From NCBI GenBank assembly GCA_040770465.1, contig JAXGJB010000006.1, positions 1 through 64,000 on the forward strand: a stretch of DNA of 64,000 nt, given 5' to 3'. Both the position numbers and the translations under genes were made by a program. Shown one piece after another: positions 11,405 to 56,033 of the stretch (positions within the stretch are counted from its first letter, which is position 1; each line of letters begins with the position of its first letter). This DNA comes from Methanothrix sp. Its GTDB lineage: Archaea > Halobacteriota > Methanosarcinia > Methanotrichales > Methanotrichaceae. The notes below the pieces were generated by a model, which saw only the letters and a list, made by a program, of their open reading frames with translations, did not search any database and had not been told where the DNA came from.

Positions 11405-14400
11405 ACTCTCTGTGTACTAGCACCCATTGTTGGTATTGACAGCCCGCTTCATTATCCCATTTTTCCTCTACTAGCTCGACTTCTAGCTGATCGTCGTTCT
11501 CATCACCGTCGCCCTTAAGATACGTCTCATCCCAGTTTTGTTCTATGCTGTCCACGTTTGCAATTCTATAATAACCATCACAGTCACCCAAGCTATCTTT
11601 TAGCTTGAAAAACCACCATCCTTTACTTTTGTGGGATGCGTCACGCGTATCCAGGTCGACTTCCGCTAAAGCATCTTCGTCGCCTTCACCAACGAGCACG
11701 CATTCTTTGTCCTTCTTATCGCCATCGACATTTACAATCACATATTTACCATATAGATGTTCCTCTAACTTCCACAGCTGCTGGTCGTCATCTGATTTAT
11801 AGTCATCTAGATCTACTTCAGAATTATCATCTTCGCTCTCGACTCCCGTCAGATAGCACTCTTTATCATCCTCAACACTCCCCCGGCTCACGATACTTAT
11901 GTGACCCAAATCACTGATCTTCAAAGTCATAAATGAAGATACGTCCCCCAATAACCAGTCGCCTATATACGGCACGCTGCTGTCGAGGAATATCTGCGAT
12001 TTTCCCTTATAATCACTTTCTTCGTATAGTATTATGGCATATCCAGAAGGAAGGTTGCTCCTAAACGAACGTACCTCCTTACCGAAATCGCCAATATTTG
12101 GAGATCTGTCCGTAAATATCCTCCCACTGCCGTCATAGTTAGTATCATTGAATAACACTACGTGGGTACTATATTCGCTCGACTTGACGAGTTTCCATCT
12201 TTGATAATCGTAGCCGAGATAGTCGTATTGTTGGACGTTGGCTCCGCCGTCTTTGCTGCCGCCTGCAACTTCCAGGCACCTATCGCTGTATTTGGAGATG
12301 ATTTTACAGTAACCATCTGCGGCAGGCTCAAATCTCCATACCTGATTCTCACTTCCATCATAATCGCATACTACAACGTCGACTCCATTGCTTGTATTGT
12401 CCCGATCAGAAGTTGCAAGGCACTTGTCGCCGTTAACTATCTTGAAGCAACCGTCCCCAACAGGTTTTAACATCCAGTTCTGGCCACTTTCTCCGAAATA
12501 AAATGACTGCACAACCTCCTCGCCTTCAACTACACTTAGACACAGCGAACTGTGCTTGGCTTCGATCAGATATTCATCCTCTAAAGTGCACTTTGGATCA
12601 TCACGTATCATGGAAGGATAAATCTCGAGCGGCTGCACCATCCATTTCTGGTGGTCACCTTCTGTGTAATTATCCTGGATGACGCTGGCACTATCTTCCA
12701 ATCTCGCCCTCTCAACCGATAGGTAATTTCCACTGTGCCGCGCACCGATCTTGTAGTAGCCGTCCCCAACTGGCTCAAAGTACCATTGTTGATACATTTT
12801 AGGGTAACAATTTTCGTCAAATTCTAATATGCCTGACTGAACGTTTGCTCCTCCGCGCACCATCCCGTGATCAACCTCTAGATAACGGTAGGTGTCGTTG
12901 TTATGAACTATATAATAACCATGTCCGATATGCTCCAGATACCATCTTTGTTTTGGACCAATGCCGCCTTTATATTGATACGCGTTGTAGTCATGATCTT
13001 CATCAGATCCGTCCAAGCACTTCTCACTGTTTTTTACAGTGAATACGTACCAGCCGTCGCTGAACGGTGCTGCGACAGAATCTGGAAGCAGGCCAATTTC
13101 AAGTTGACTGGAGGAGTTATTGAGATTGGTGGCGATGATGGTGGCGTTTTTGTCTCTCCTCATCACCTGGATTACTGAAGTTTCGTATATCGTATCGTTA
13201 TCGTCATCGGTCATGGTCAAGTTTCGATACTCGCCGTTTACCTTCACGTGAGCGATCACGCTCTTAATTCCATATCCATCGGTAACCGATGCATATGCTC
13301 TCGTCATGTCCAAGCTGTAACCGGCCCAGTGGATCTTTGGTTTTTCAGATATTTGCGGTGTCAAGATGAAATGCCATCCTGGCTCCAGTTCAAGCTCCCC
13401 TATACTCCTATTGCTGTCGTTTAGCTCTTTGGCTCGCTTCAAAGCATCTATATCAGAAACACCGAGCACCCACTTCGTGTTATTTTGGTGTGGCACGCTG
13501 TCATCGCTTCCAATGGTCCAATTGATCGCATCACCCAAGGTTACCGAAGAGCCTGCATATACCTTGTATTCTTTGTAGACTCCATCTTCCAGATCGAACA
13601 TGAGAGTTGCGGTCTTCTTATCTATCTCTTCCATATAAGTACTGAAATCCTCTTCTGTGCAAACCCACTCATTTTTCTCCCCGCTCCATTTCTTGACCTT
13701 CGCATCAACTTTAAACGACTCAATGCTGAGAGGTGTTCCACAGTCAATTGATTTCAATTGTTCGAAAGAGGTGGTTATGTCTTCACCTCTGTTGCCGACC
13801 AGACCTTGATCAAGCTCTACGTCTGCGCTCGTCTCCCCTCTATCAAGCGAGGTTATCGAGGTTGGCGAGGTGACGGTTGCAATCACCACTTCCCCAAGCT
13901 TTATGTTGACATTGGGGACTACGTTTTCGGCTGGCGTCATCCCGATATTTTTGACGTTCAACGTGAAGGCGAGCTTTGCAGCCTCGTCCAAGCTGGTGGT
14001 GGTTGCGGTGCTCCAATCTTCCTGGGTAAAACCGGAAGTAGTATTTGAATCAGTTGTAGTGGTCGTCTTCTCCCAAAATCCCATATAATGCAACGTGACC
14101 TTACCACCAGTAATCATCGTAAGGGGACTTAAGCTTGGCGTAAATTCAAAGTTACCCCCCCCCTCCTGATGATTTGTATGGGCAATAGATGTTTCGTGAG
14201 TTATACTCCATCCTGTATTATTTGAGCCGCCCGTGGTGGACGTGATCTCTGCGATGGGCGTAACTCGCGTCTCTTTGAGCACCACCTTAAGACCGGGATA
14301 CGCAGCCACCAGGGGGTGATCTGCTGGCGATATCTCTGGCATGTTCACGTGGAAATATTCCTGGCCATCGCCATAAAGATCGCCGTCGGTGCTGAAGATC

Positions 14401-22918: not shown

Positions 22919-23947
22919 TCAGCTCTGATGTCTCAGCCAGTCGTTCCAGGTGTACAGCCTGGCGTCGCGCCCCTGGAGCATCAGGGCGTACCAGACGATG
23001 GAGGCCTGGCCACCGTTCTTGGTGTAGACGGCGACGGGCCGATCCGCCTCCAAGTCGGCGAAGATCCCGGCGAGGGCCGAGTCATCCTTGATCCAGCCGC
23101 CGTCGATCATCCTGTTGAAGTCGATGTTGACGGCTCCATCGATATGACCGGCAGCGAACTGACCCGGTGTCCTTGCATCGACGACCACAAACTCGCCGGC
23201 GGCGACTGAGTCGTAATCTGCGAGAAGCTCGGGGCGGAGGTGTGATGTGTAGGTGGCGGCAGGCCTCGTCGTCGTCGAACCCGCAGTGGGAATCCCGGCC
23301 GCCGCCCAATCTCCCGAAGATCCCCGGAGGATCGTGACGTTCTCGTGGCCCAGGTACTGCATGATCCAGAAGACAAAGGTAGGATCACCACAGGAGAGGC
23401 AGTCGCCGTAAATCACCAGATCGTCATCTTCGGTGACCCCCGCATTCCCGAGAACCCCGGCCATTTCAGATTCGGATTTCAACATGCCTAGCCCGGAATC
23501 GTCGTTCTTGACGAAGCTCTTTGAGGGGAGGTTTATCGATCCCTCGATGTAGGATGAGCTCTGGGGCGCGGTGTTGCTGACGTAGGCGATCAAGGGCTTT
23601 TTGTCACCGTCGAGCCTCAACTTAAGCTCCTGGGCTGAGACGGACCAGGTGCTGGTGTCATAATCGTCATAAAAAGCCGCTTCGGTCCCAGCTTCAGCGC
23701 CCGTCTCAGACTCAGAATTCATACCATCCGATGGGGCCGAATCGTTCGAAGCGGCTGAATTGTTCGAGGTGGCCGAATCGTTCGACGATCCCCCCAGAGC
23801 CGTCTCGATCCACGACTCGCCGTCCCAGATGCCGCCGCTTCCTCCGCCGCACGATGGGCATTCGGCCTCTGCGCCGCCTAAAAGGACGACCAACGTTATC
23901 ATAACAGCCCCATACTTCGCTATGTTGCTTCGCATCTTTTTATTCAC
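22919..23947 (-). CDS. Secreted tandem-domain rhodanese-like protein, copy 1
   Basis: Signal peptide ending AEA then CPSC; [39 protein letters not shown]; catalytic Cys position reads VYTKNG. Confidence 0.85.
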   Translation of the reverse strand: MNKKMRSNIAKYGAVMITLVVLLGGAEAECPSCGGGSGGIWDGESWIETALGGSSNDSATSNNSAASNDSAPSDGMNSESETGAEAGTEAAFYDDYDTSTWSVSAQELKLRLDGDKKPLIAYVSNTAPQSSSYIEGSINLPSKSFVKNDDSGLGMLKSESEMAGVLGNAGVTEDDDLVIYGDCLSCGDPTFVFWIMQYLGHENVTILRGSSGDWAAAGIPTAGSTTTRPAATYTSHLRPELLADYDSVAAGEFVVVDARTPGQFAAGHIDGAVNIDFNRMIDGGWIKDDSALAGIFADLEADRPVAVYTKNGGQASIVWYALMLQGRDARLYTWNDWLRHQS

Positions 23948-23998: not shown

Positions 23999-24418
23999 TC
24001 ATACCCTCCCCTCTCCTGTCACCAGCTCTGCCAGTTTCATCATCTCGATGACCGCCCCATCTGAGAGCCGGTAACGGGACCACTTTCCCTCCTTCCTCTC
24101 CTTTACCAGACCCGCCCCCTTCAGGATAGATAGATGATGAGACGTGGACGACTGGGGCCTGTCGAGGGCGGTCATGATCTCGCAGACGCAGAGCTCCCCC
24201 CCCCTGAGGAGCTCGAGGATCGCAAGCCTGCAGGGGTCTGCCATGGCCTTGAAGACCTCGGCCCCGGCAACTAGCCGACCCTCATCCAGATTTTCGGTTA
24301 ATGTTTGAAGCCTCCGGGCTGCATTCTCGGCCTTGCATCGATCTCCCGTCAGCCTTGTAAGCCTCTCAATGCAGGGGTCCGGGGTTTTTATCTCCTTACT
24401 AATGTCGATCAGCCCCAT
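23999..24418 (-). CDS. arsR: ArsR/SmtB family transcriptional regulator
   Basis: FKAMADPCRL, ELCVCEI metalloid box, SHHLSILK. Confidence 0.9.
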   Translation of the reverse strand: MGLIDISKEIKTPDPCIERLTRLTGDRCKAENAARRLQTLTENLDEGRLVAGAEVFKAMADPCRLAILELLRGGELCVCEIMTALDRPQSSTSHHLSILKGAGLVKERKEGKWSRYRLSDGAVIEMMKLAELVTGEGRV

Positions 24419-24428
24419 ATCGATCGGC

Positions 24429-24572
24429 TCAGCAGCAGGAGCACCCAGAAGATGGAAGAAGCATCTCCGCCTCCTGTCTCAAGCATTCCCTGCAGATCCT
24501 CACCCGCCCCCTCTTCCGATGCCTCGCTTTGAAGAGGGGATCCGACTCCTTGCCGCAGATCTCACATATCAT
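24429..24572 (-). CDS. 47-aa Cys-rich microprotein, copy 1 (CxxC...CxxC...CSCC)
   Basis: Manual translation MICEICGKESDPLFKARHRKRGRVRICRECLRQEAEMLLPSSGCSCC*; same-length paralog at 27909-28052. Confidence 0.8.
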   Translation of the reverse strand: MICEICGKESDPLFKARHRKRGRVRICRECLRQEAEMLLPSSGCSCC

Positions 24573-24733
24573 TAAGGACCACATCCCCGTTATGGAGGTC
24601 CGGAGGAAGATCTCTCTGGCCCGGGTTCCGGATTGGGGTGGCAGAAACCGTCAAATCCACCTTCGGACCGCAGTTCAAAGGGATTAAGGATGGAGAGATC
24701 TCCGACCGTCTCCATAGAGCTCGCAATTTTCGT

Positions 24734-24765
24734 ATCAAGTTTATTCGATATATAAGGGTATCGAA
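24734..24765 (-). promoter_or_regulatory. TATA box with overlapping ArsR-type operator
   Basis: ATCAA-N6-TCGAT at 24734-24749 and TTCGATA-N8-TATCGAA at 24744-24765 around CTTATATA (minus strand); conserved at 28283-28314. Confidence 0.7.
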
Positions 24766-24872
24766 ACTCAGGTCACCTTCAGCCCGTCCGAATAAGGCGA
24801 TTTATTCGGATGGTATTTTAAAATAAGAAAAAGCATTATCGTCCCAAAATTGTAGATTAAATGGCTGTTTTC

Positions 24873-24910
24873 TGTGGATTATTGCTCCGCCTATCCAACA
24901 ACTATATATG
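24873..24910 (+). promoter_or_regulatory. Conserved inverted repeat plus TATA upstream of thioredoxin-like gene
   Basis: TGTGGAT-N13-ATCCAACA followed by CTATATAT; same motif at 28423-28460. Confidence 0.55.
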
Positions 24911-25061
24911 AACGTACTTCAACAAAAGGCCAAATCGGCTAGAAGCGCCAAAAAAAAGGGCCTCTCGAAATCCGCCTTCATGAATATAGAAATGCGCTCT
25001 GCTCAAGCTGGGAATTTATGCTGTAACGAATAGAAAGTGTGATAGATATAGAGAGTGGGAG

Positions 25062-25619
25062 TTGGTATATATTTCGAGAAAAGTCACAAATACCCTTGCT
25101 GCCCTGGTTTTAGGGCTAGTTCTTTCCGCCGGCCTTGTCGCCTCCGTCTCGGCGACGGAGTATTCCGTCGGGGAGGGGCCCGACGATTGGTGGACCGTCT
25201 ACCAGGATCTGCATACGAATTCCGGCGCCGAGGTCGACCACCCCTCGTGGGTCCTGGACCTCCTGGCGGAGAAGCCGGTTCTCATTCTTGATCACAGCAC
25301 CAACTGCGAAGGCTGCATCAACCAGGAGGCCTACGTCAACGCCGTCCTGGAGGACTACGGCGATGACGTGGCGTACGAGAACCTTATCACCGGCAGCGGC
25401 GACTGGAAGGCCGACACCCTCTTCGACATCTACGATCCCAACGGTGGCAAGCCCACCATGCCGCTGACGGTGATTCTGACGTTGGTGGAAGTTGACGGGG
25501 AGGTCGTGGTCGGATGGCACAGCATGGAGGACGCCGCCGGTGGGGAGGAGATGGTCAGATCCTACGTTGAGGACGCCATCGACTATTACGACGAGAACGC
25601 CGACGACTGGGAAGCGTGA
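25062..25619 (+). CDS. Secreted thioredoxin-like protein, copy 1
   Basis: Signal peptide, CEGC active site, cis-Pro-like MPLTVIL, very acidic. Confidence 0.85.
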   Translation: MVYISRKVTNTLAALVLGLVLSAGLVASVSATEYSVGEGPDDWWTVYQDLHTNSGAEVDHPSWVLDLLAEKPVLILDHSTNCEGCINQEAYVNAVLEDYGDDVAYENLITGSGDWKADTLFDIYDPNGGKPTMPLTVILTLVEVDGEVVVGWHSMEDAAGGEEMVRSYVEDAIDYYDENADDWEA

Positions 25620-25823
25620 TCGGATAGGTGCCCAAATTTTTATCTTTTTTTTATCTTTGATGCCTGAACCTGAGGAGGAGAAGACGAATCCGGAGGTAAG
25701 GACGATCCTTCGCTTCCATGAGGCAAATGCTCGCACTAAGATCGACGAGCCTCCGGAAATTTCTGTGAAATCTGACGGCGGACGGTACCACCAACCTCTA
25801 TGGTACCATCCCCTCTTCTACTT

Positions 25824-26798
25824 CTAAACAGCTGGCTGATGTCTCAGCCAGTCGTTCCAGGTATAAAGCCTGGCATCGTACCCCAAATGCTGAAGGGCAG
25901 ACCAGACGATGGAGGCCTCGCGGACGTCGTCGGAATAGACGACAACGGGCCTTTCAGGATCAAGATCGATGAATATCTCGGTGAGGGCTGAATCGTCCTT
26001 GATCCAGTCGCCCTCGATCACGCGGTTGTAGTCGATATTTATCGCTCCATCGATGTGACCTGCTGCGAACTTATCTGGGGTCCTAGCGTCAACTATCACA
26101 AACTCGCCTGCGGCGACGGACTCGTAATCGGCGAGAAGCTCAGGGACTGGATCGTCCAAGTAGATTGCAGCGGGCTTCGTCGTCGTGGACGATGCCGTGG
26201 ACAGTCCGGTCGCTGGTCCCTTGAGGATCTGGACGTTCTGGTGGCCCAGGTACGACATGACCCAGAAGACGAAAGTTGAATCGCCACAGGAGAAACAGTC
26301 ACCGTATAGCACCACAGCATCCTCCTCGTTGATCCCAGCGCTGCCGAGAACCCCAGCCAGGTCAGAGACGGATTTCAGCGTTTCATTTCCTGAATCGTCT
26401 TCTTGGATGAAGTTATCTGAAGGAAGATTGATCGATCCGTCGATGTAGGATGAGTTTTGTGGTGGGGTGTTGCTGACATAGGCGATCACGGGCTTCGTTT
26501 CTTCTTCTAGAATCTCCTCCAGCTCTTGGGAGGATATGAACGAGTAGCCGATGTTGTCATTCTGGTCCGACACCACCTCGGATCCCTCAACTACGGTCTC
26601 GGCTTCCGTCCCAGTCGACGTGGCAGATTCGCCTGATTCCTGGCTCATCGAGTCTCCGAGCCATGATTGGCCGCTCCATGTGCCACTAATTCCGCTGCTA
26701 CTACCTCCGCCACCGCAGGCGCATCCGGCTTCTGCTCCGCCTGCAAAAGCGATCATAACGACCAGGATCGCTCCATACTTCGCTAGTTCACAACGCAT
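25824..26798 (-). CDS. Secreted tandem-domain rhodanese-like protein, copy 2
   Basis: Paralog of 22919-23947; AEA-GCAC N-terminus, [30 protein letters not shown]; catalytic position reads VYSDD. Confidence 0.85.
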
Positions 26799-27856
26799 TC
26801 AGTATACACTCCTTGAAAGTACATTTCTTTGAAATAAAGCGCCACGTTCACCAGGCTTATCAGCACGGGAACCTCCACCAGGGGACCGATAACAGCCGCG
26901 AATGCCTCGCCGGAGTCGATGCCGAATACGGCTACCGCAACTGCGATGGCCAGCTCGAAGTTGTTGCTTGCTGCGGTGAAGGAGAGGGCCGCGGTGTTCT
27001 CGTAGCTAACGCCCATCTTGTGGGATATGAAGAAGGCTACAAGGAACATTGCCAGGAAGTAGATGATGAGAGGAAACGCGACCCTCACCACGTCGAAGGG
27101 AAGCTCAACGATGTATTCGCCCTTGAGGGAGAACATGACGACGATGGTGAAAAGGAGGGCGATCAGGGTCAGGGGGGAGATCTTGGGGATGAACCTCTCT
27201 TCGTACCAGTTTTTTCCCCTCCTTTTGATCAGAGCAAATCGGGTGATGATCCCCGCGAGGAAGGGTATCCCGAGATAAACGAAGACGCTCTTGGCGATAT
27301 CAGCCATGGTTATGGCCACCACGAACCCTTCAGATATCCCGAGGATGGGGGGAAGAACCGTGATGAATACGTATGCGTAGACTGAGTAGAAGAGGACCTG
27401 GAAGATCGAGTTGAGGCCGACGAGCCCCGCACAGTACTCGGTGCATCCGCAGGCAAGCTCGTTCCATACTATCACCATTGCGATGCACCGGGCGATCCCG
27501 ATCAGAATCAGGCCAACCATGAAATGAGGGTAATCCCGAAGGAATATGACCGCCAGGCCGAACATGAGGACCGGCCCGACCGCCCAGTTCAGAAAAAGGG
27601 ATAGACCTAGCACTTTCGTGTCTTTGAAGACCTCACCCAGCTCCTCGTACTTCACCTTGGCAAGGGGCGGGTACATCATCAAGATCAGGCCGACGGCGAT
27701 GGGGATCGATGTGGTCCCAACCTGAAAGCCGGTTACGAACTCCGAGACTCTGGGGAAGAAATAGCCCATCCCGATGCCGAGGATCATCGCACCGAAGATC
27801 CAGACCGTCAACAACCTGCTCAAGAGCGGGAGCCTAGCCCTTTCTCTCTCGTTCAT
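26783..27856 (-). CDS. acr3: Acr3 family arsenite efflux transporter
   Basis: [54 protein letters not shown]. Confidence 0.95.
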
Positions 27857-27908
27857 CCATATCAAGTCCTAAAAATCCTCGATAAGCCTTTCTTCCTCTG
27901 CCATCGGA

Positions 27909-28052
27909 TCAGCAGCAGGAGCACCCATCGGAGGGAAGAAGCATCCCCTCCTCAGCTCTCAGACATTCTTCGCATATCTTCACCCGTCCCCACCTCCGGT
28001 GCTTCACCTTGAAGAGGGAATCTGATTCCTTGCAGCATATCTCACATTTCAT
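27909..28052 (-). CDS. 47-aa Cys-rich microprotein, copy 2
   Basis: Manual translation MKCEICCKESDSLFKVKHRRWGRVKICEECLRAEEGMLLPSDGCSCC*; GAGGA RBS upstream. Confidence 0.8.
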   Translation of the reverse strand: MKCEICCKESDSLFKVKHRRWGRVKICEECLRAEEGMLLPSDGCSCC

Positions 28053-28282
28053 GTCTTCCTCAGCCCCAAGCCGGCTCGTCCCCATCGAGCCTTCTCGCCG
28101 ATGTCCACCATCGTTGGTCCTCCCAAAGGTCTCTCCGAAGCGGACATCCTCGCCATTAGGCCATCACGCGGATCTATCGTGCCGACGATAAAGGGTCAGG
28201 AAGAGCAGCAACCATCCTCTTGATGGTGGCCTTTATCGATGCGGATAATCCCGGCATTCCTGCCTGATTTTGCAGCACTCGC

Positions 28283-28314
28283 ATCAATCCTTTTCGATAT
28301 ATAAGTTTATCGAC
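28283..28314 (-). promoter_or_regulatory. TATA box with overlapping ArsR-type operator, copy 2
   Basis: ATCAA-N6-TCGAT at 28283-28298 and TTCGATA-N8-TATCGA around CTTATATA (minus strand). Confidence 0.7.
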
Positions 28315-28625: not shown

Positions 28626-29150
28626 GTGGGAGTTGGTTTTATTCCGTGCATAATCAAAAATAAGATTGCGGCCCTGGCTGCTGGGATCTTCCTTGCGGCC
28701 AGCCTTATCTCTGTCGTCTCGGCATACTCCGTCGGGTCTGGACCCGACGACTGGTGGACCTCCGACGTGAGCCATCCCGACTGGGTTTTAGATGCCCTGG
28801 AGGAAAAGCCCGTCCTGGTCTACGCCCATCTGGGATGCGACTACTGCAAACCTCAGACTGATGCTGTGAACGAGATCGTCGACGAATATGGCGATGAAAT
28901 CGAGTTTTTTGACCTGCCCGCCGACGGGAGCGACGAGAGGAGCGAGGAGGCCCTCGTAGCTTATGATACCAATGGAGGCGCATCCCTGGTCCCCCTGACG
29001 GTCATCCTCACCCTGGCGGCAGGAGAGGATGGCGAGGTTGAGGTTGCCTGGCACAGCACAGAAGAGGTAACAGGCAAGGAATGGATCCAGGAGTACGTTG
29101 AAGACGCTATCGATTACCACGAAGAGAACGTCGAGAACTGGGACGAGTGA
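28626..29150 (+). CDS. Secreted thioredoxin-like protein, copy 2
   Basis: Signal peptide, CDYC active site, VPLTVIL; paralog of 25062-25619 (YSVGxGPDDWWT). Confidence 0.85.
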   Translation: MGVGFIPCIIKNKIAALAAGIFLAASLISVVSAYSVGSGPDDWWTSDVSHPDWVLDALEEKPVLVYAHLGCDYCKPQTDAVNEIVDEYGDEIEFFDLPADGSDERSEEALVAYDTNGGASLVPLTVILTLAAGEDGEVEVAWHSTEEVTGKEWIQEYVEDAIDYHEENVENWDE

Positions 29151-29156
29151 TCGGAG

Positions 29157-30560
29157 ATGAGATCCGATCACAAACATTTTTTCATTGTGGGTATCGTAAC
29201 GCTTCTTATCGCCCTGGTCGCTTTATTCTCATATAGTTCGACTTTGGGATCGAATCAGGAACCGATCCCGGCGCCGGACTTCACGGCCGCTGACCAAATC
29301 GGCGAAAACTTCTCCCTCAGCGATTACAGGGGCGAGGTGGTCGTACTTCACATTACGAACATAGAGAGCCCGATCTGCGTCGAGTGCGAGAGGACTCTCA
29401 AGGCCCAGACGGGCGAGCTTCAACGGCTGGTGGAGAATAAGCCAGACGTCAATCTGATTACTCTGAACGTCCGGAAGAACCCCTTCTCAAATGACGGCAA
29501 GAGCCTTGCCGAGAGCTGGTGGAACGCCAACGTAAGCTGGATCTGGGCCGAAGACTTTGAGCCCTACAATATCGCCGGCAAGTACGTCGACTACACAAAC
29601 TATGAAGGAGGCTTCTCAAACCCCACCATCCTCTTGATCGACAGAGATGGGATGGTGGCGGGGGTCTACCACGTCTATCAGCTTGGAAGAGGTGAGATAG
29701 ACGGGATTCAGGATGCAGAGACCCTTCAAGCAAAAGTCGAGGCTCTGGAGAGGGGCGAATGGGCCGGGATGGAGGGGAGCGTTTCCATCCAGAAGATCAC
29801 GTTTCTTGGCATGTTCGCCCTCGGGATCATCACCTCGTTCTCGCCCTGCTCTCTTGCCCTCCTCATAGCCATGTTCTCCTACATCATGACATCTCGAAGA
29901 AAGAAGGTTCTCACTGACGATCAGGATCGCGGCTCCTCGTCCAAAGAGGGGCTACTTATCGGGATCGCCTTCACCCTCGGGATGGCAATGGTCTTCTTCG
30001 TCGTGGGGCTCTTCATATCGAACGTGGGGATCTTCGTCCGGGACTCGCGATTCTTCGACTTCGCGGCCGGGGTCATCCTGGTGGTTCTGGGGATCAACGT
30101 CTTCAAGCCCATCGGCGAGATCATCGAGCCGGTCAGGTCCAGACTTCCTTCAAGAGAAGAAGACGAAGAAGAGTTCAGGGAGAAGAAGGGGTTCATGGAG
30201 AGGGCTGTGAACTTATCCATCGGCCTCTTCAAGCATTCGACCTTCATCGGGGCCTTCACCCTCGGGGTCTTCTTCGCCCTGGGCTGGGCTCCATGTGCCG
30301 TCTCCCTGGTATTTCCCGCCCTGATCTGGCTCTTGTCTCAGGATATATCTGTCCTGACCGGAGGGCTGATGCTCTTCGTCTTCGGGGTGGGCCACGGTGT
30401 TCCCATAATCCCCATCGCCACCTTCAGCAGATCCTTCGGAGGAAAGATGGGCGAGGAGTACCTGGCCATCGGAAAGCTGGTGGTCAAATTCTTCGGGGTG
30501 ATGATAATAGTCACGGGGCTCGTCTTTGCGTCCCGATACTTCGGCTACAAGCTCTGGTAG
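29157..30560 (+). CDS. Redoxin (TlpA/AhpC-like) fused to CcdA/DsbD-type transmembrane domain
   Basis: APDFTAADQIGENFSLSDYRG and CVEC; TM-domain Cys pair SFSPCS and GWAPCA. Confidence 0.88.
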   Translation: MRSDHKHFFIVGIVTLLIALVALFSYSSTLGSNQEPIPAPDFTAADQIGENFSLSDYRGEVVVLHITNIESPICVECERTLKAQTGELQRLVENKPDVNLITLNVRKNPFSNDGKSLAESWWNANVSWIWAEDFEPYNIAGKYVDYTNYEGGFSNPTILLIDRDGMVAGVYHVYQLGRGEIDGIQDAETLQAKVEALERGEWAGMEGSVSIQKITFLGMFALGIITSFSPCSLALLIAMFSYIMTSRRKKVLTDDQDRGSSSKEGLLIGIAFTLGMAMVFFVVGLFISNVGIFVRDSRFFDFAAGVILVVLGINVFKPIGEIIEPVRSRLPSREEDEEEFREKKGFMERAVNLSIGLFKHSTFIGAFTLGVFFALGWAPCAVSLVFPALIWLLSQDISVLTGGLMLFVFGVGHGVPIIPIATFSRSFGGKMGEEYLAIGKLVVKFFGVMIIVTGLVFASRYFGYKLW

Positions 30561-30611
30561 ACGCCAAAAAAAAACAAATAGTGAGGCTAGAAAACCCATA
30601 TAGGTGGTGAG

Positions 30612-31409
30612 ATGCCGGGAAAGCCGGAAGAGATCAAGATGGTGAGCAACGCCATGGCCAACATACCGCGGAGGAAGATGATGGCCTTCCTGGTCGGGAG
30701 CGAGAAGACGGCGGAAGAGATCGGGGAGGCGGTCGGCAAATCGATGCTCGACTACCATCTCAAGATTCTGCAACAGGCGGGGCTCATCGAGATGGCTGAT
30801 GGGAGAGTGCGGCTCAGCGAGTTCGGCAAGAACTTCATGGAGGGAAAGTCGGAGAAGGCGCCAGAGAAGGCAGCCGACCTCTCCGATGCAAAGCCGGTGG
30901 AGATCACAGAGGTGAGGCAGCTTTTGCCCTGCATAGCCGACTCGACGAAGTTTCGGATCATTGCCAAGATGGCTCCCCCCCTGGGTGGAGCCCTCAAGGC
31001 TCTGGAGCCCTTATTTCCAAGAGGGAGGTACTCCGAGAGGATCGGAGCTCTCATAATCCAGAGGGGAGACGTCCTGATCACCATCTATGGGACGGGAAAC
31101 GTCACCATGACGATGATCAAAGACGAGGCCGAGGCGAAGAAGACGCTAAGCGACCTGAAGGAGACGATCAACGAGGCGATAGCCAAGGGCGTCGCTCCGG
31201 CGCCTCGCGAGAAGATCAGGGTCGAGCCGATGGAGATATACAAATACCTCCCCCAAACGAACTGCGGCGAGTGCGGCGAGCAGAGCTGCTACTCCTTCGC
31301 CATCAGGCTGATGGGCGGGGAGGTCTCCATCGACCTATGCACGCCCCTCAAGGACCCGAAGTACAGACAGAACCTTGAGCACCTTCAGGTCTTGACCGAG
31401 TACATCTGA
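30612..31409 (+). CDS. ArsR-type HTH fused to a putative Fe-S-binding domain
   Basis: N-terminal wHTH (LDYHLKILQQAGLI); C-terminal LPQTNCGECGEQSC...C motif. Confidence 0.8.
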   Translation: MPGKPEEIKMVSNAMANIPRRKMMAFLVGSEKTAEEIGEAVGKSMLDYHLKILQQAGLIEMADGRVRLSEFGKNFMEGKSEKAPEKAADLSDAKPVEITEVRQLLPCIADSTKFRIIAKMAPPLGGALKALEPLFPRGRYSERIGALIIQRGDVLITIYGTGNVTMTMIKDEAEAKKTLSDLKETINEAIAKGVAPAPREKIRVEPMEIYKYLPQTNCGECGEQSCYSFAIRLMGGEVSIDLCTPLKDPKYRQNLEHLQVLTEYI

Positions 31410-31422
31410 GCCGGAGGATCCT

Positions 31423-31791
31423 TTGAAGACCCTGACCATCATCCTCGCCGACGGTCCCTACATCTCCGAGTACGCCCATATAGCGTTCAAGATAGCCGAT
31501 GCCGCCCTAAAAAGGTATCATGTGAACATATTCCTCTACCTGGACGCCGCCCACATCCCCCGCCGAGGACAGAACCCGGCATTCTTCGCCGACGAGGGCG
31601 AGCTCTTCAAAGACCTCGCCGAGAGGGGGGCGGTGATAAGGGCCTGCTCCCGGTGCGCCGCCGCCAGGGGCTACATTGGGGAGGAAGACGGCTCCTCACA
31701 GGATTATCCCGATGGGATAAAGATCACCAGCCTCTACGACCTCCCGGAGATGATCTCAGGAAGCGACAGGGTGATAGCTCTATGCCGATGA
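31423..31791 (+). CDS. DsrE/TusD family sulfur relay protein
   Basis: DGPY, IFLYLDA, conserved ACSRCAAARG. Confidence 0.85.
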   Translation: MKTLTIILADGPYISEYAHIAFKIADAALKRYHVNIFLYLDAAHIPRRGQNPAFFADEGELFKDLAERGAVIRACSRCAAARGYIGEEDGSSQDYPDGIKITSLYDLPEMISGSDRVIALCR

Positions 31792-35585: not shown

Positions 35586-35918
35586 TCATCCGACAGAGCC
35601 CTTCAAGATCTCTTCGGCCTTCTTCAGCTCAGATATCTCCTCCAAAGCGAGAGCGTCCACCTCTCGCAGAAGGTCGAATATCCTTGGGTTCTTCACCTGG
35701 TAGAGGGTCCGCTTGCCGTCTATCCTTCTCTCCAATATCCCCGCCTCGTTGAGGATGGCCAGGTGCTTTGATATGGTGGACTGAGCCCTGCCGAAGGCGG
35801 GAACGATCTCGCAGACGCACCTCTCCTCTCGTCCGAGAAACTCTATTATCTCAAGCCTTGTGGGGTCGGAGAGGGCGCCGAGGATCTTGGCGCGCCAATT
35901 GGTGGCCGATCTTCTCAT
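35586..35918 (-). CDS. arsR: ArsR/SmtB family transcriptional regulator
   Basis: ALSDPTRL, ERCVCEI, QSTISKHL. Confidence 0.9.
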   Translation of the reverse strand: MRRSATNWRAKILGALSDPTRLEIIEFLGREERCVCEIVPAFGRAQSTISKHLAILNEAGILERRIDGKRTLYQVKNPRIFDLLREVDALALEEISELKKAEEILKGSVG

Positions 35919-35945
35919 CGTATCGGAGACTCAAAGCAACTGATT

Positions 35946-53032: not shown

Positions 53033-55644
53033 GGCATGATCTCTCTTTTGACCTCATCCCAACGGAAGTCATCGACCTTCTCAGGCCGGTCGAAGAAGTA
53101 CTCGTCCAGGTAGGGCTCGATCTCCATCTTCCAGACGTCCTCTATCTCCTCGGCGAGGTCTTCCCGGAGGAAGAAGGATATCCCTACCTCGAAGTGGCTG
53201 TCGTTTATCTGGGTGTTCAGTCGGCGCAAAACCCCGATCAGCCCCTCGACGGCAAAGCCAGTATCGCGATTTTGGTGATACGAGCGAAGAACATCGTGAT
53301 TCGGCTGGAGCCGCAGGAAGGCGAAGCGCCGCCTGAGGGCGTGATCCACCAGGGCGATGGAGCGGTCTGCGGTGTTCATCGTCCCGATGATGAGGACGTT
53401 ATCGGGTATCCGGAGATACCCGCCACCAGCCAGGGGGATCGAACGATCGCGATATTCGAGGAGGTACATCAGTTCCCCGAAGACCTGGGATAGGTTCGCC
53501 CGGTTGATCTCGTCGATGATCAGAACGCAGGTTCCGCTGCGAGAGTCTGCCCGCTCGCAGAATTCGAGGAATCGTCCCGGAACGAGGGGGTACCTCAGCC
53601 CGCCGTCGTCGTCCGATTGCGGCCTTATCCCCTGGATGAAGTCCTCGTAGGCGTAGGCGGGATGGAACTGGACCAGGTCGGCGAAGCCATCTCCACCGCC
53701 GATCAGGTGTTTTGCCAGATGTTCGGCGACGTACGTCTTCCCGGTCCCCGGCGGGCCGTATAGGACGGCCTGGCCCTTCCGCTTGATGGCGCGAACCCAG
53801 CGCTCTAAGGTTTCGAGATCGAAGCCGGTATCTTCGGCGCAATCGGACAGTGGATACTCTCCGTTTTCTTGGAACTCAGGGGACATTGCCGATCCTAAGA
53901 AATCGGGCCAATCGGTATCAGGCTGTGATCGTCGGATAATATCAAGCCCCTCAGAATTTAGCCGAAATAAATATCCCTGTTTTACGCCACCGTTGTTGTT
54001 TAGAGGGCCTTGATTTATATCGAGTTTCGAAAGCGATTGTGAGAATTTGTCCAATGCGATGGGAGGCTTTAGCTCATGATAATCGACTCGAACAAGATTA
54101 CCTTCTTGGGACCAATTTCTTCCGTTCATGGCGTGCGGATCTTTGGTCTTTTTTGCAGGCTCAATAACTCGGCTTACATAACGTAAGTAGCCGTTGGCGT
54201 AATGAATGATAGTATCATCATTGCCTACATCTGACAAGTTGTCCCAGTGATAAATAGAACGTCCCGTTTTGGACTTTATCGGCGCCCAGATATAGCCGCC
54301 ATTTAATTCTACATCGAGCGTTGATCCCTGGTTGACCCACCAAATGTTCTTTGCCACAATTCCGGCGCCAAATGAGCCCGCAAGCAGTTCTTCACGTCTT
54401 TTCGTATCAAATGCTGCGTGTGCAAATCGTTCTTGATATTTATTCCGCCAAGGCGATCTTTTCCAATCTTTGAACTTGTTTGCAATATGATTTAGAGCCT
54501 CTTCGTAGGCGTTAAAGATCTCGTCTCCAGAGGACATGGCCATTTCAATCGGTATCTTGTAGTTTCTTATGTCGGGGTCATCCTCATCTTGAGCAAAAAC
54601 GAATGATACAAAACTTTCGTCCAAAATATTTTGATTTGATGAAAGTGTTATAGTAACGCTATCTGAAGCGTGATCTTTTGAGCCATCGAATCCCAATACC
54701 AACCAAGGGCCAAAACTCAGATGGAGAGTTCTCCCACCGGATCTTATCGGTATTGTGATCGAAAAACGCTCATCATCGAGACTATTGACGCCTAGACGCT
54801 CAAGGGTCATCTTCAGCAAATCAAAAGCCCATCCGGCCTCCAGCTTGTTCCTGAAGATCTTTTCACATATTTTAGCAAATGGTTCAGAGAGCTCTTTTGG
54901 GTCTAGGTCCAGGAAGTTTTGGATATCATCGGAAGCTTCCCTTTTGAGATCATATCTCTTGATTGCCACCAACCAGTGAGTGAACATATCGAAGAGATCA
55001 TCTGATCTAATTCCTGAAATCCCAAAATCGCCAATGTCGTCTGAGATGTCGTTTACCAGTGAACGTGCCATCTCATTGATTGAGGGGTAATCTGCCAAAC
55101 TTGACGAATAGGACGTGCCGGAGAAGTAGTTGACAGCTCGCCTCGATTTGTTGTTTATCAAGATGAAATCATCCGGCCTGAGTGCATGGAGGATCGGCGT
55201 CAAGGTACCGGCTTGAAAACCTTTGGAGTAAGGTGAATCTGAAAACTCGTCACATGCGATCTTTAACTCTTCTGGATGATCATTGCAACGGCGAACAAAA
55301 CGCAAAATCGAGTTCGCTACTTTGGGCCAATCTTCCGGTTTTGTCCATCCTGCAGCTTCGAACCTCTTCTTCACATCGACTTTAAAAACCGAAGCGATGG
55401 AGATCCAATAATTCATTTCTCGATTGGCTTTGGTATCTTCATAGGGAAGCAACTTTATCAAGACTTTTTCGGTTACATCCTCGCCTCGCCCTTCAGCCTG
55501 GAGGATAGCCTCAAAATTCTTCTTGCCCTCTTCCCTCTCTTCTTCGTAATGCCCAAGATGAGACTGACCTTTAGACGTGAGAGGATAGCTATGTGCAAAT
55601 TCACGAAAAAGCTCGATAAACTCGGCCCTCTTCTCCGCCAGCAA
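53029..55644 (-). CDS. mcrB: McrB family AAA+ GTPase with multi-domain N-terminus including an EVE-like domain
   Basis: GPPGTGKT, VQFHPAYAYEDF, IIDEINRAN, GTMNTADRS, LRRRF; upstream IWWVNQG...GGYIWAP. Confidence 0.92.
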   Translation of the reverse strand: MLAEKRAEFIELFREFAHSYPLTSKGQSHLGHYEEEREEGKKNFEAILQAEGRGEDVTEKVLIKLLPYEDTKANREMNYWISIASVFKVDVKKRFEAAGWTKPEDWPKVANSILRFVRRCNDHPEELKIACDEFSDSPYSKGFQAGTLTPILHALRPDDFILINNKSRRAVNYFSGTSYSSSLADYPSINEMARSLVNDISDDIGDFGISGIRSDDLFDMFTHWLVAIKRYDLKREASDDIQNFLDLDPKELSEPFAKICEKIFRNKLEAGWAFDLLKMTLERLGVNSLDDERFSITIPIRSGGRTLHLSFGPWLVLGFDGSKDHASDSVTITLSSNQNILDESFVSFVFAQDEDDPDIRNYKIPIEMAMSSGDEIFNAYEEALNHIANKFKDWKRSPWRNKYQERFAHAAFDTKRREELLAGSFGAGIVAKNIWWVNQGSTLDVELNGGYIWAPIKSKTGRSIYHWDNLSDVGNDDTIIHYANGYLRYVSRVIEPAKKTKDPHAMNGRNWSQEGNLVRVDYHELKPPIALDKFSQSLSKLDINQGPLNNNGGVKQGYLFRLNSEGLDIIRRSQPDTDWPDFLGSAMSPEFQENGEYPLSDCAEDTGFDLETLERWVRAIKRKGQAVLYGPPGTGKTYVAEHLAKHLIGGGDGFADLVQFHPAYAYEDFIQGIRPQSDDDGGLRYPLVPGRFLEFCERADSRSGTCVLIIDEINRANLSQVFGELMYLLEYRDRSIPLAGGGYLRIPDNVLIIGTMNTADRSIALVDHALRRRFAFLRLQPNHDVLRSYHQNRDTGFAVEGLIGVLRRLNTQINDSHFEVGISFFLREDLAEEIEDVWKMEIEPYLDEYFFDRPEKVDDFRWDEVKREIMP

Positions 55645-55841
55645 GCCAAATCTCCTCCATGTTTATATCCGAAATCAAGCCCATAACCTCGAAGCCCGAC
55701 TTGCGGGACACGATGCTGGCATCAGCGAAAAATGTTTTGCTGAATCAAGATGTCATTTGACCTGTTTTTTTACCGCTGGCTCACTCAAGTGGATGAATCA
55801 GATCACAACCTATAAGCCCTTAGAGCCCTTACGGCGCTTAC

Positions 55842-56033
55842 GTGGGCGAAGTGGAAGATAAAATGATCCCAGTGACCCGCGAAGTTTGGGAAGGCCTATC
55901 GGACCTCAAAAGGCCGAAAGAGACGTTCACGACCCTCCTCGCAGAGATGATCGAGCACGAGAAGACCCGGCGGCTCTTCCTCGATATGGACGAAATCGAG
56001 AAGGAGGGCAACTTCGTGGAGCTGCACATTTAA
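55842..56033 (+). CDS. Small antitoxin-like DNA-binding protein
   Basis: IPVTREVWEGLSDLKRPKETFTTLLAEMI pattern; no toxin gene follows. Confidence 0.65.
   Translation: MGEVEDKMIPVTREVWEGLSDLKRPKETFTTLLAEMIEHEKTRRLFLDMDEIEKEGNFVELHI

Follow-up and report, generated by a model that had tools for sequence, protein, structure and literature searches.

Cysteine-tailed microproteins with a predicted zinc-ribbon core are linked to arsenic resistance genes in Methanothrix and related archaea

The arsenite (As(III)) sites of the repressor ArsR and of the small protein ArsD are S3 thiolate sites with vicinal cysteines. ArsD, a cytoplasmic product of ars operons, was first seen as a second regulator of its operon; its vicinal Cys pair and a third Cys bind As(III) and pass it on. 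To our knowledge, ArsD serves only ArsA, the permease Acr3 has no chaperone, and pumps of the Acr3 or ArsP type are not known to work with any accessory protein that binds arsenite. ArsD has been called 'the first arsenite metallochaperone', and it is the only one mentioned in the part of a review of ars gene distribution cited here (PMC6205960). Here we describe two very short open reading frames (ORFs), microORF copies 1 and 2, that lie in a 64,000-nt stretch of a Methanothrix sp. genome (assembly GCA_040770465.1, contig JAXGJB010000006.1, positions 1 to 64,000; hereafter the window), each at the head of a set of arsenic resistance genes. They are paralogues in an undescribed archaeal microprotein family that carries two to four Cys on a tail predicted to be flexible, and we tentatively read their product as an accessory to the ars regulon that binds As(III) in the cytoplasm.

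Four described groups come close to this microprotein, with ArsD and the SmtA/SmtB pair nearest to it in proposed function. ArsD (PF06953) resembles it in setting and proposed chemistry, yet it has ~120 amino acids (aa) and a thioredoxin-like fold as against 47 aa and a zinc ribbon; its profile matched none of 38 aligned microprotein family members at E <= 10, and its client ArsA is absent from the microORF loci. SmtA/BmtA are Cys-rich thiolate buffers of ~50 aa with a zinc-finger-like fold, which take up the metal that induces them and are encoded next to SmtB, their ArsR-family repressor, but their context is zinc whereas that of the microprotein is arsenic. The prokaryotic metallothionein profile found no match among the 38 members either (E <= 10), and because the ribbon takes four of the seven Cys, the capacity of the microprotein would be one metalloid per peptide and not a multi-metal cluster. 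Intramolecular As(III) sites of the ArsR family resemble the Cys tail in using two or three thiolates, often adjacent, on a flexible terminal segment, whereas the Cys cluster described here sits on a separate 47-aa protein and not on the repressor. The structural relatives are one-domain four-cysteine (C4) ribbons of < 70 aa, such as the Haloferax C(P)xCG proteins (e.g. HVO_2753) and the CxxC-x17-CxxC proteins of Methanosarcina mazei. Zinc binding by two representatives of the M. mazei group is reported from inductively coupled plasma mass spectrometry (PMC12704099); their spacing is x17, against x20 in the microprotein. The main-text parts of the papers on the small proteome of M. mazei considered here, supplementary tables aside, present the CxxC-x17-CxxC group without mention of arsenic (PMC11456600, PMC12704099); in those of the second paper, a Cys tail in an ars context is not described and 'arsR', 'arsenic' and 'arsenite' occur 0 times (PMC12704099). 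Structurally, the microprotein belongs to the generic archaeal C4 zinc-ribbon microproteins. It represents a new family whose task, the binding of a metalloid by thiolates, is probably of a kind already known, though in a form and a place that are new.

Both microORFs measure 144 nt, stop codon included. An earlier reading of the window from its letters alone (the sequence-only reading) had placed them on the minus strand, and coordinates, strand and 47-aa products all agree (Table 1). It had also counted seven Cys common to the two products, all of which are found in the pairwise alignment (C3, C6, C27, C30, C44, C46 and C47), where 34 columns are invariant (72% identity) and the last five residues are the same; copy 2 has an eighth Cys at position 7. 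Each copy therefore pairs a CxxC-x20-CxxC core with a C-x-C-C end. An upstream in-frame ATG exists in both frames, giving longer ORFs of 51 and 58 aa in the ORF listing, but we favour the 47-aa products because conservation in 38 homologues begins at the ATG chosen in the sequence-only reading. The 2.54-Mb assembly (94.85% complete) contains just these two copies, with next-best matches at E > 0.1.

The two microORFs open parallel operons, copy 1–ArsR–rhodanese-like B and copy 2–Acr3–rhodanese-like A, with intervals of 10 nt between copy 1 and ArsR and of 43 nt between copy 2 and Acr3; that the microORFs precede arsR or acr3 had been claimed from the sequence, as had a common operator at the two promoters. 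The likely operator is the palindrome TCGATA-N8-TATCGA, which lies upstream of each copy and nowhere else in the window (2 occurrences against 0.05 expected; 0 of 100 shuffles reached two), 173 nt from the start of copy 1 and 242 nt from that of copy 2. The upstream regions of the two copies are homologous, and in nine further genomes of the genus the orthologous microORF is preceded by the same palindrome at 39–350 nt. What is seen beside the microORF is an ArsR gene and, overlapping a TATA-like element, the shared palindrome; the palindrome is likely the operator of that ArsR, which would put the promoter under ArsR control. The regulator itself matches NF033788 (E=5.7e-29) and PF01022 (E=3.6e-17), as expected of an ArsR-family winged helix-turn-helix (HTH) protein. 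In its ELCVC(D/E) motif the first Cys is near-invariant and the second invariant across 21 sequences, and we take ELCVCE to be the classical R773-type As(III) site. Acr3, the only Acr3 match in the genome, scores 445.8 bits against a TIGR00832 cut-off of 282.8, which identifies it at equivalog level. The gene order in the window therefore amounts to a duplicated module, in which a thioredoxin-fold gene and a microORF diverge from the palindrome and the microORF is followed by ArsR or Acr3 and then by a rhodanese-like gene.

The microORFs are members of a real protein-coding family. Full-length open homologues were found by translated search in 35 of 61 related genomes (28/36 in family f1, 0/3 in f2 and 6/21 in f3), and the ratio of nonsynonymous to synonymous substitution rates (dN/dS) between copies 1 and 2 is 0.26 (dN 0.16, dS 0.64; Nei-Gojobori). 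These were the checks that the sequence-only reading had asked for, and both came out in favour of protein-coding genes. Two matches occur in 6 of 16 genomes of the window's genus, its own genome included; among the second matches, one is partial and one has an internal stop. Screening 401 genomes of the phylum with a profile gave a match in 75, at E <= 2.2e-11 in 62; the 13 further matches (E 1e-5 to 1e-3, within long open frames) are regarded as unrelated zinc ribbons. C6, H18, C27, C30, E34 and C46 are invariant in the 38-sequence alignment, and C3, I5, G22 and L38 almost so. Over 261 pairs with 0.1 < dS < 2, the median dN/dS was 0.28 (maximum 0.68), and the mean pairwise difference at codon positions 1, 2 and 3 was 0.33, 0.30 and 0.55, the third being the most variable. 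The family is under purifying selection.

Members are scattered through the public collections under uninformative names. Among 1.84 billion representative proteins, an exhaustive HMMER search returned 55 matches, nearly all of 42–112 aa, with one 2,505-aa entry that lacks the matched stretch. Querying a word index of 5.8 billion clusters yielded 39 proteins, none with a Pfam domain, of which 17 are named 'hypothetical protein' and one bears an unrelated JGI label (aMBF1). RefSeq members, again all 'hypothetical protein', come from Methanosarcina acetivorans (WP_162829684.1), M. barkeri, M. siciliae and others, and from metagenome-assembled genomes of Methanothrix and Methanotrichaceae. Neither window copy matched a Pfam or NCBIfam family at E <= 0.01, and no description of the family turned up in full-text searches of the literature. 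Metatranscriptome contigs of a close strain, whose product P0003 is 94% identical with every Cys kept, reach in two runs across all of copy 1 into the beginning of arsR (X1 record 4, 24332-24666; X3 record 17, 24327-24656), and another covers the leader and first 25 nt of copy 2 (X3 record 21, 28028-28224). Since the contigs carry no strand information and DNA may be present in the RNA libraries, they lend weak support to expression; the lack of coverage, in some runs, of parts including most of copy 2 and acr3 is uninformative. That the microORF is a chance ORF, or a leader peptide or upstream ORF regulating arsR or acr3, we consider very improbable. Its shortness, its absence from many annotations and its place as a first cistron closely spaced to arsR would suit such an origin, but selection acts on the amino-acid sequence, the metal-ligand pattern is invariant across families, the fold is predicted with confidence, and stand-alone copies have neither arsR nor acr3 after them.

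Linkage to ars genes was followed in both directions. Starting from the microORF, we surveyed about 8-14 kb around 58 loci, in which 60 microORFs were placed by alignment profile, and classed their neighbours by Pfam and by local phmmer against window and locus proteins. ArsR, Acr3, ArsP, LMWP-type ArsC and ArsR-methyltransferase fusions were counted as ars genes; since relatives are not independent, the linkage counts are descriptive. The loci represent at least eight GTDB families of the phylum. An ars gene lies within 4 kb of 42 of the 60 copies, in several archaeal families, so the homologues that the sequence-only reading predicted beside ars genes elsewhere do exist. The first gene downstream encodes ArsR for 30 copies and Acr3 for 3; one copy is followed by a rhodanese-like gene and one by an MtrA-like gene, and the remaining 25 have another gene or none. 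In the window's family, the usual order has two arms diverging from one intergenic region, the first running from the thioredoxin-fold gene through thioredoxin/DsbD_TM and HTH-FeS to DsrE, the second from the microORF through ArsR and Acr3 to the rhodanese-like gene. Methanosarcinaceae copies precede ArsR-ArsP, face ArsR-methyltransferase fusions, or adjoin DGC-domain, Usp-Acr3 and Thioredoxin_3 genes, and the ars association is also seen in five to six further GTDB families (L101-L107).

The reverse scan was seeded with ArsR, taking one genome per species and the best 80 loci of this ArsR subfamily, which come from Methanothrix, Methanocrinis, Methanotrichaceae, Methanosarcinales and one Methanospirareceae. 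A microORF lies directly upstream on the same strand in 58 of them; 2 more have a frameshifted microORF and 2 sit at contig edges without room upstream, which gives 60 of 78 usable loci, while the remaining 18 have none. Taken together, the gene family and its ars linkage are solid, and we hold them to be all but certain.

So close a pairing with ArsR raises the question of whether the microprotein is a co-sensor or anti-repressor that binds the ArsR encoded downstream, perhaps at its conserved N-terminal extension, with the tail completing an intermolecular As(III) site and tuning how sensitive or selective derepression is. ArsR immediately follows 30 of the 60 copies, at gaps of -30 to 203 nt (2-53 nt in 28; measured to the aligned ArsR start), and the 60 of 78 loci of the reverse scan point the same way. 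The extension is common to the microORF-adjacent ArsRs and absent from the other ArsR of the window (35586-35927), and 22 of 30 matches to it in the 61 relatives adjoin a microORF. ArsR offers just two Cys in its classical site (ELCVCE) and none conserved in the extension, so a third As(III) ligand could come in trans. We nevertheless judge this role unlikely. Two-Cys ArsR sites suffice for derepression; window copy 2 and L105 precede Acr3 without an ArsR; in Methanosarcinaceae the microORF is often on its own in the vicinity of ArsP, Acr3 or ArsR-methyltransferase genes; 7 of the 30 extension matches lie away from a microORF, and for two of these the genome yielded no microORF; and the 18 loci without a microORF belong to the same ArsR subfamily. 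A search for fused forms gave four matches, three of which are over-called starts. In P0095 (ENA, 888-nt contig), microprotein and ArsR do read as one in-frame chain with Trp at the stop position, which would favour the co-sensor role if the read-through is real and not an assembly error. The other apparent micro-ArsR fusions, on the metagenome-assembled contigs L145 and L067 (= L172), are frameshifts, probably from assembly errors, and were rejected as Rosetta-stone evidence; that of L145 falls within a run of A and is probably a sequencing or assembly error. A prediction of the complex of two ArsR chains with the microprotein, made from alignments, scored 0.01 against a mark of 0.32, lacks controls and counts neither way.

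The fold predicted for the microprotein is that of a small metal site. The AlphaFold2 model built from the alignment has a mean predicted local distance difference test (pLDDT) of 86.3, with a beta-hairpin of strands 13-18 and 22-27 (pLDDT ~90) and a short helix at 28-33, whereas the tail has low confidence (mean pLDDT 57 in the last-residue block). The sequence-only reading had proposed a zinc-ribbon core, and the model bears this out: the invariant or near-invariant CxxC-x20-CxxC pattern and the predicted hairpin and helix make the core a C4 zinc ribbon, two CxxC knuckles flanking a beta-hairpin, which presumably binds zinc. The model also supports the Cys tail as a flexible appendage. With it, a Foldseek search of the PDB found nothing at E <= 0.001 (best E=0.51), and the weak rows are mostly zinc-binding ribosomal proteins and zinc fingers, HVO_2753 among them at rank 32 (E=2.6). 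A profile search of PDB sequences gave none below E=0.1, and the nearest ESM Atlas clusters, 'hypothetical protein' and one DUF4428 cluster, gave no functional lead. A Pfam scan of the 38 members at E <= 10 listed 16 families, with weak echoes of generic zinc-ribbon families: of DUF4428 in 10 members (best E=7.7e-4; no match for the window copies at E <= 0.01), of DUF7685 in 4 and of Zn_ribbon_8 in 4. Membership among the rubredoxins or metallothioneins was rejected, neither profile matching any of the 38 at that threshold.

The tails vary around a common theme. Within the last nine residues of 41 ars-linked copies (one read-through copy left out), 30 have C-x-C-C, 7 have CC and 4 have C-x-C; at least two Cys stand close together in every one of the 41. 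The 18 copies that lack an ars gene end in C-x-C-C (6), C-x-x-C (6), CC (3), C-x-C (2) or none of these (1), and distant representatives keep the ribbon, add a Gly/Ser linker and carry varied Cys clusters at the end. A tethered Cys cluster is therefore a trait of the family, present in ars-linked, non-ars and distant members alike; C-x-C-C is its main form in the ars-linked copies and is not exclusive to them.

The reading in which the microprotein assists the ars regulon by binding As(III) in the cytoplasm, which we hold as possible and favour only tentatively, draws on the two-way genomic linkage, the arrangement of ArsR and palindrome, and the known chemistry of As(III) with thiolates. It fits a genome in which ArsD was not found and ArsA is not ars-linked: no ArsA was found in the window locus with Pfam or NCBIfam, and the sole full-length ArsA/Get3-like match of the genome is on contig C4, away from the ars loci. 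Among annotated neighbours elsewhere, ArsA appears just as a secondary ArsA_ATPase match on a ParA/NUBPL protein in L115. In the sequence of events that we envisage, As(III) entering the cell would make ArsR leave the palindrome, and the microprotein would be made first and in excess. The tail thiolates, two or three with the vicinal pair included, would capture As(III) as a thiolate complex, while the zinc ribbon would keep the peptide folded and offer a conserved docking face (H18, G22, E34, L38) to a client within the ars regulon. Candidates for this client are the efflux permease and ArsR. As(III) would then be passed on by ligand exchange, or would just be kept from vulnerable dithiols.

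Several observations weigh against this reading. Of the 60 copies, 18 lack an ars gene within 4 kb. Thirteen of these belong to distant branches; the others are L050 and L051, where rhodanese-like and thiol-relay genes are kept without ArsR or Acr3 within 4 kb, the short-tailed L055 and L059 of one genus, and L056 of the Methanosarcinaceae. In 3 of 5 annotated distant-branch loci (L109, L112 and L115, from another family of the phylum), a gene for a ParA/NUBPL-type P-loop NTPase lies within 2.6 kb, and NifU, ferredoxin or FrhB-like genes adjoin some of the three; their microproteins combine the ribbon with a G/S linker and a C-x-x-C-K or C-x-C-C end. Because so many copies lack an ars gene, including those with iron-sulfur (Fe-S) carrier neighbours, the Cys tail is not arsenic-specific. 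Nor is the pump that adjoins the microORF always the same (Acr3, ArsP), and this speaks against a single conserved transporter as client. C46 is the sole invariant tail Cys, and since 11 of the 41 ars-linked tails have two Cys, not every copy offers an S3 site within one peptide. The conserved His18/Glu34 face finds no explanation, the 18 of the best 80 ArsR loci without a microORF count here as well, and the RNA data are unstranded contigs from one study with possible DNA carry-over. The sequence-only reading had combined a zinc-ribbon core with an arsenite-binding CSCC tail in a mini-metallochaperone or metallothionein-like buffer. What stands of it is a pair of real, conserved genes with a predicted C4 ribbon, a flexible tail and ties to ars genes; its arsenic-specific part is weakened, as the C-x-C-C end of 30 of 41 ars-linked tails is set against the two-Cys tails of the other 11 and the Fe-S-linked distant branch.

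The same distant branch would fit a carrier of thiophilic cargo tied to the handling of Fe-S or other metal clusters, whose ars-linked branch protects or repairs Fe-S or zinc-thiolate sites under arsenic stress. The case is made by the ParA/NUBPL-type NTPases in 3 of 5 loci, with NifU, ferredoxin and FrhB-like genes beside them. Five annotated loci are a small base, however, such neighbours were not found in the ars-linked branch, and no Fe-S motif is predicted, and we regard this role as quite improbable. A broader proposal joins the two: a 'Cys-tail carrier' class in Halobacteriota, hitherto overlooked, in which a rigid zinc ribbon would dock and a tethered Cys cluster would ferry thiophilic cargo, one branch acting as arsenite carrier or co-sensor (sharing a site with ArsR or handing over to Acr3 or ArsP) and another serving Fe-S P-loop carriers. 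We put this forward as a doubtful generalization.

The genes divergent from the microORFs suggest yet another role. The operon at 29157-31791 and the thioredoxin-fold gene before it suggest a transmembrane thiol-reducing relay co-regulated with arsenic efflux. The microprotein might then be a mini-redoxin whose tail dithiol feeds cytoplasmic electrons to this DsbD/CcdA-type relay, or reduces a cytoplasmic arsenate reductase; the relay would keep extracytoplasmic thioredoxin-fold and Cys-bearing rhodanese-like proteins reduced, e.g. so that arsenate can be reduced or arsenic-thiol chemistry can take place outside the cell. In the window's family, a common intergenic region lies between the microORF and the operon of the thioredoxin-fold protein, DsbD_TM fusion, HTH-Fe-S and DsrE genes, and the cluster encodes no cytoplasmic thioredoxin. 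Of the 60 copies, 20 have a DsbD-type gene within 4 kb; L050 and L051 keep microORF, rhodanese-like and relay genes where ArsR and Acr3 are missing, and in other families several copies have a Thioredoxin_3 gene in their vicinity. Most Methanosarcinaceae and out-group copies, on the other hand, have ars genes nearby and no DsbD-type gene. The predicted fold is a zinc ribbon and not a thioredoxin, a vicinal CC disulfide is strained and unusual in redox carriers, and the tail motif takes several forms (CC, CxC, CxCC), which catalytic redox motifs do not. Electron transfer is thus an unlikely function, and As(III) binding in the service of the ars regulon remains the reading that we prefer.

Table 1. 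Position and strand of the microORFs and neighbouring features in the window
Feature	Position	Strand	Description
microORF copy 1	24429..24572	-	47 aa, predicted C4 zinc ribbon + C-x-C-C tail
microORF copy 2	27909..28052	-	47-aa paralogue of copy 1, identity 72%
ArsR/SmtB metalloregulator	23999..24418	-	ELCVCE motif, ~50-aa N-terminal extension; starts 10 nt after copy 1
Two-domain rhodanese-like protein B	22919..23947	-	N-terminal hydrophobic anchor
Acr3 arsenite efflux permease	26783..27865	-	TIGR00832 E=1e-133; starts 43 nt after copy 2
Two-domain rhodanese-like protein A	25824..26798	-	N-terminal hydrophobic anchor
Membrane-anchored thioredoxin-fold protein, CxxC	25062..25619	+	divergent from copy 1; no Pfam family
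Paralogous membrane-anchored thioredoxin-fold protein	28626..29150	+	divergent from copy 2
Thioredoxin-like (AhpC/TSA) + DsbD/CcdA-type membrane domain fusion	29157..30560	+	
ArsR-type HTH protein, C-terminal Fe-S domain (PF04060)	30612..31409	+	
DsrE/DsrF-like protein	31423..31791	+	
Palindrome TCGATA-N8-TATCGA	24745..24764	.	over TATA-like element; candidate ArsR operator/promoter
Second palindrome, same sequence	28294..28313	.	upstream of copy 2

Some of these neighbours deserve a description of their own. The two thioredoxin-fold proteins have ~180 aa, an N-terminal hydrophobic helix and an invariant CxxC, and match no Pfam family at E <= 1; an AlphaFold2 model (pLDDT 78.6) found 13 PDB chains at E <= 0.001, of which those listed are almost all thioredoxins. 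From this model, the genes at 25062-25619 and 28626-29150 look like an unannotated family of membrane-anchored, probably extracytoplasmic thioredoxins that is conserved beside the ars operon. RNA-library contigs lie over the first of them at a word depth of 13-31. A 206-aa ORF on the opposite strand (25116-25736, minus), without a family, was dismissed as probably spurious because the conserved plus-strand thioredoxin-fold gene occupies the same DNA. The thioredoxin-like/DsbD_TM fusion shows a weak echo of the ArsG family (E=1.5e-14) that falls far short of the cut-off. The two rhodanese-like proteins are paralogues, and each starts with a hydrophobic stretch, after which come a Cys pair and a Ser/Gly-rich linker; judged by eye, the C-terminal domain has Ser/Thr at the expected catalytic Cys and the N-terminal domain a D-C-x-S-C-G-D loop. 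To judge from these residues, they may be extracytoplasmic thiol or arsenic binders rather than sulfurtransferases. Further along the window, a second, short ArsR-family gene on the minus strand (35586-35927) lacks the N-terminal extension of the microORF-adjacent ArsRs, and G+C content falls to 0.46 at 12001-14000 and 54001-56000, against 0.55-0.65 around. Outside the window, MtrA-like (PF04208) genes stand within the ars clusters L101, L103 and L104, by ArsP, Acr3 or LMWP-type ArsC; a corrinoid-protein link to arsenic methyl chemistry is possible.

If the microprotein does bind As(III) for the ars regulon, a conserved part of arsenic resistance has been missed in the acetoclastic methanogens (Methanothrix/Methanocrinis and Methanosarcina) and related archaea, because it is just 45-55 aa long. 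These methanogens are the dominant methane producers of rice paddies and anaerobic digesters, settings in which the speciation of arsenic bears on food safety and process stability. A small thiolate carrier opening Acr3 and ArsP operons would make the question of an accessory factor for such pumps testable, with a homologue at hand in the genetically tractable Methanosarcina acetivorans. Were the 'Cys-tail carrier' proposal true, the microprotein would be the first accessory factor for ArsA-independent arsenite pumps. Most entries in the growing list of archaeal zinc-finger microproteins lack a known role, and to this list the family adds a functional context.

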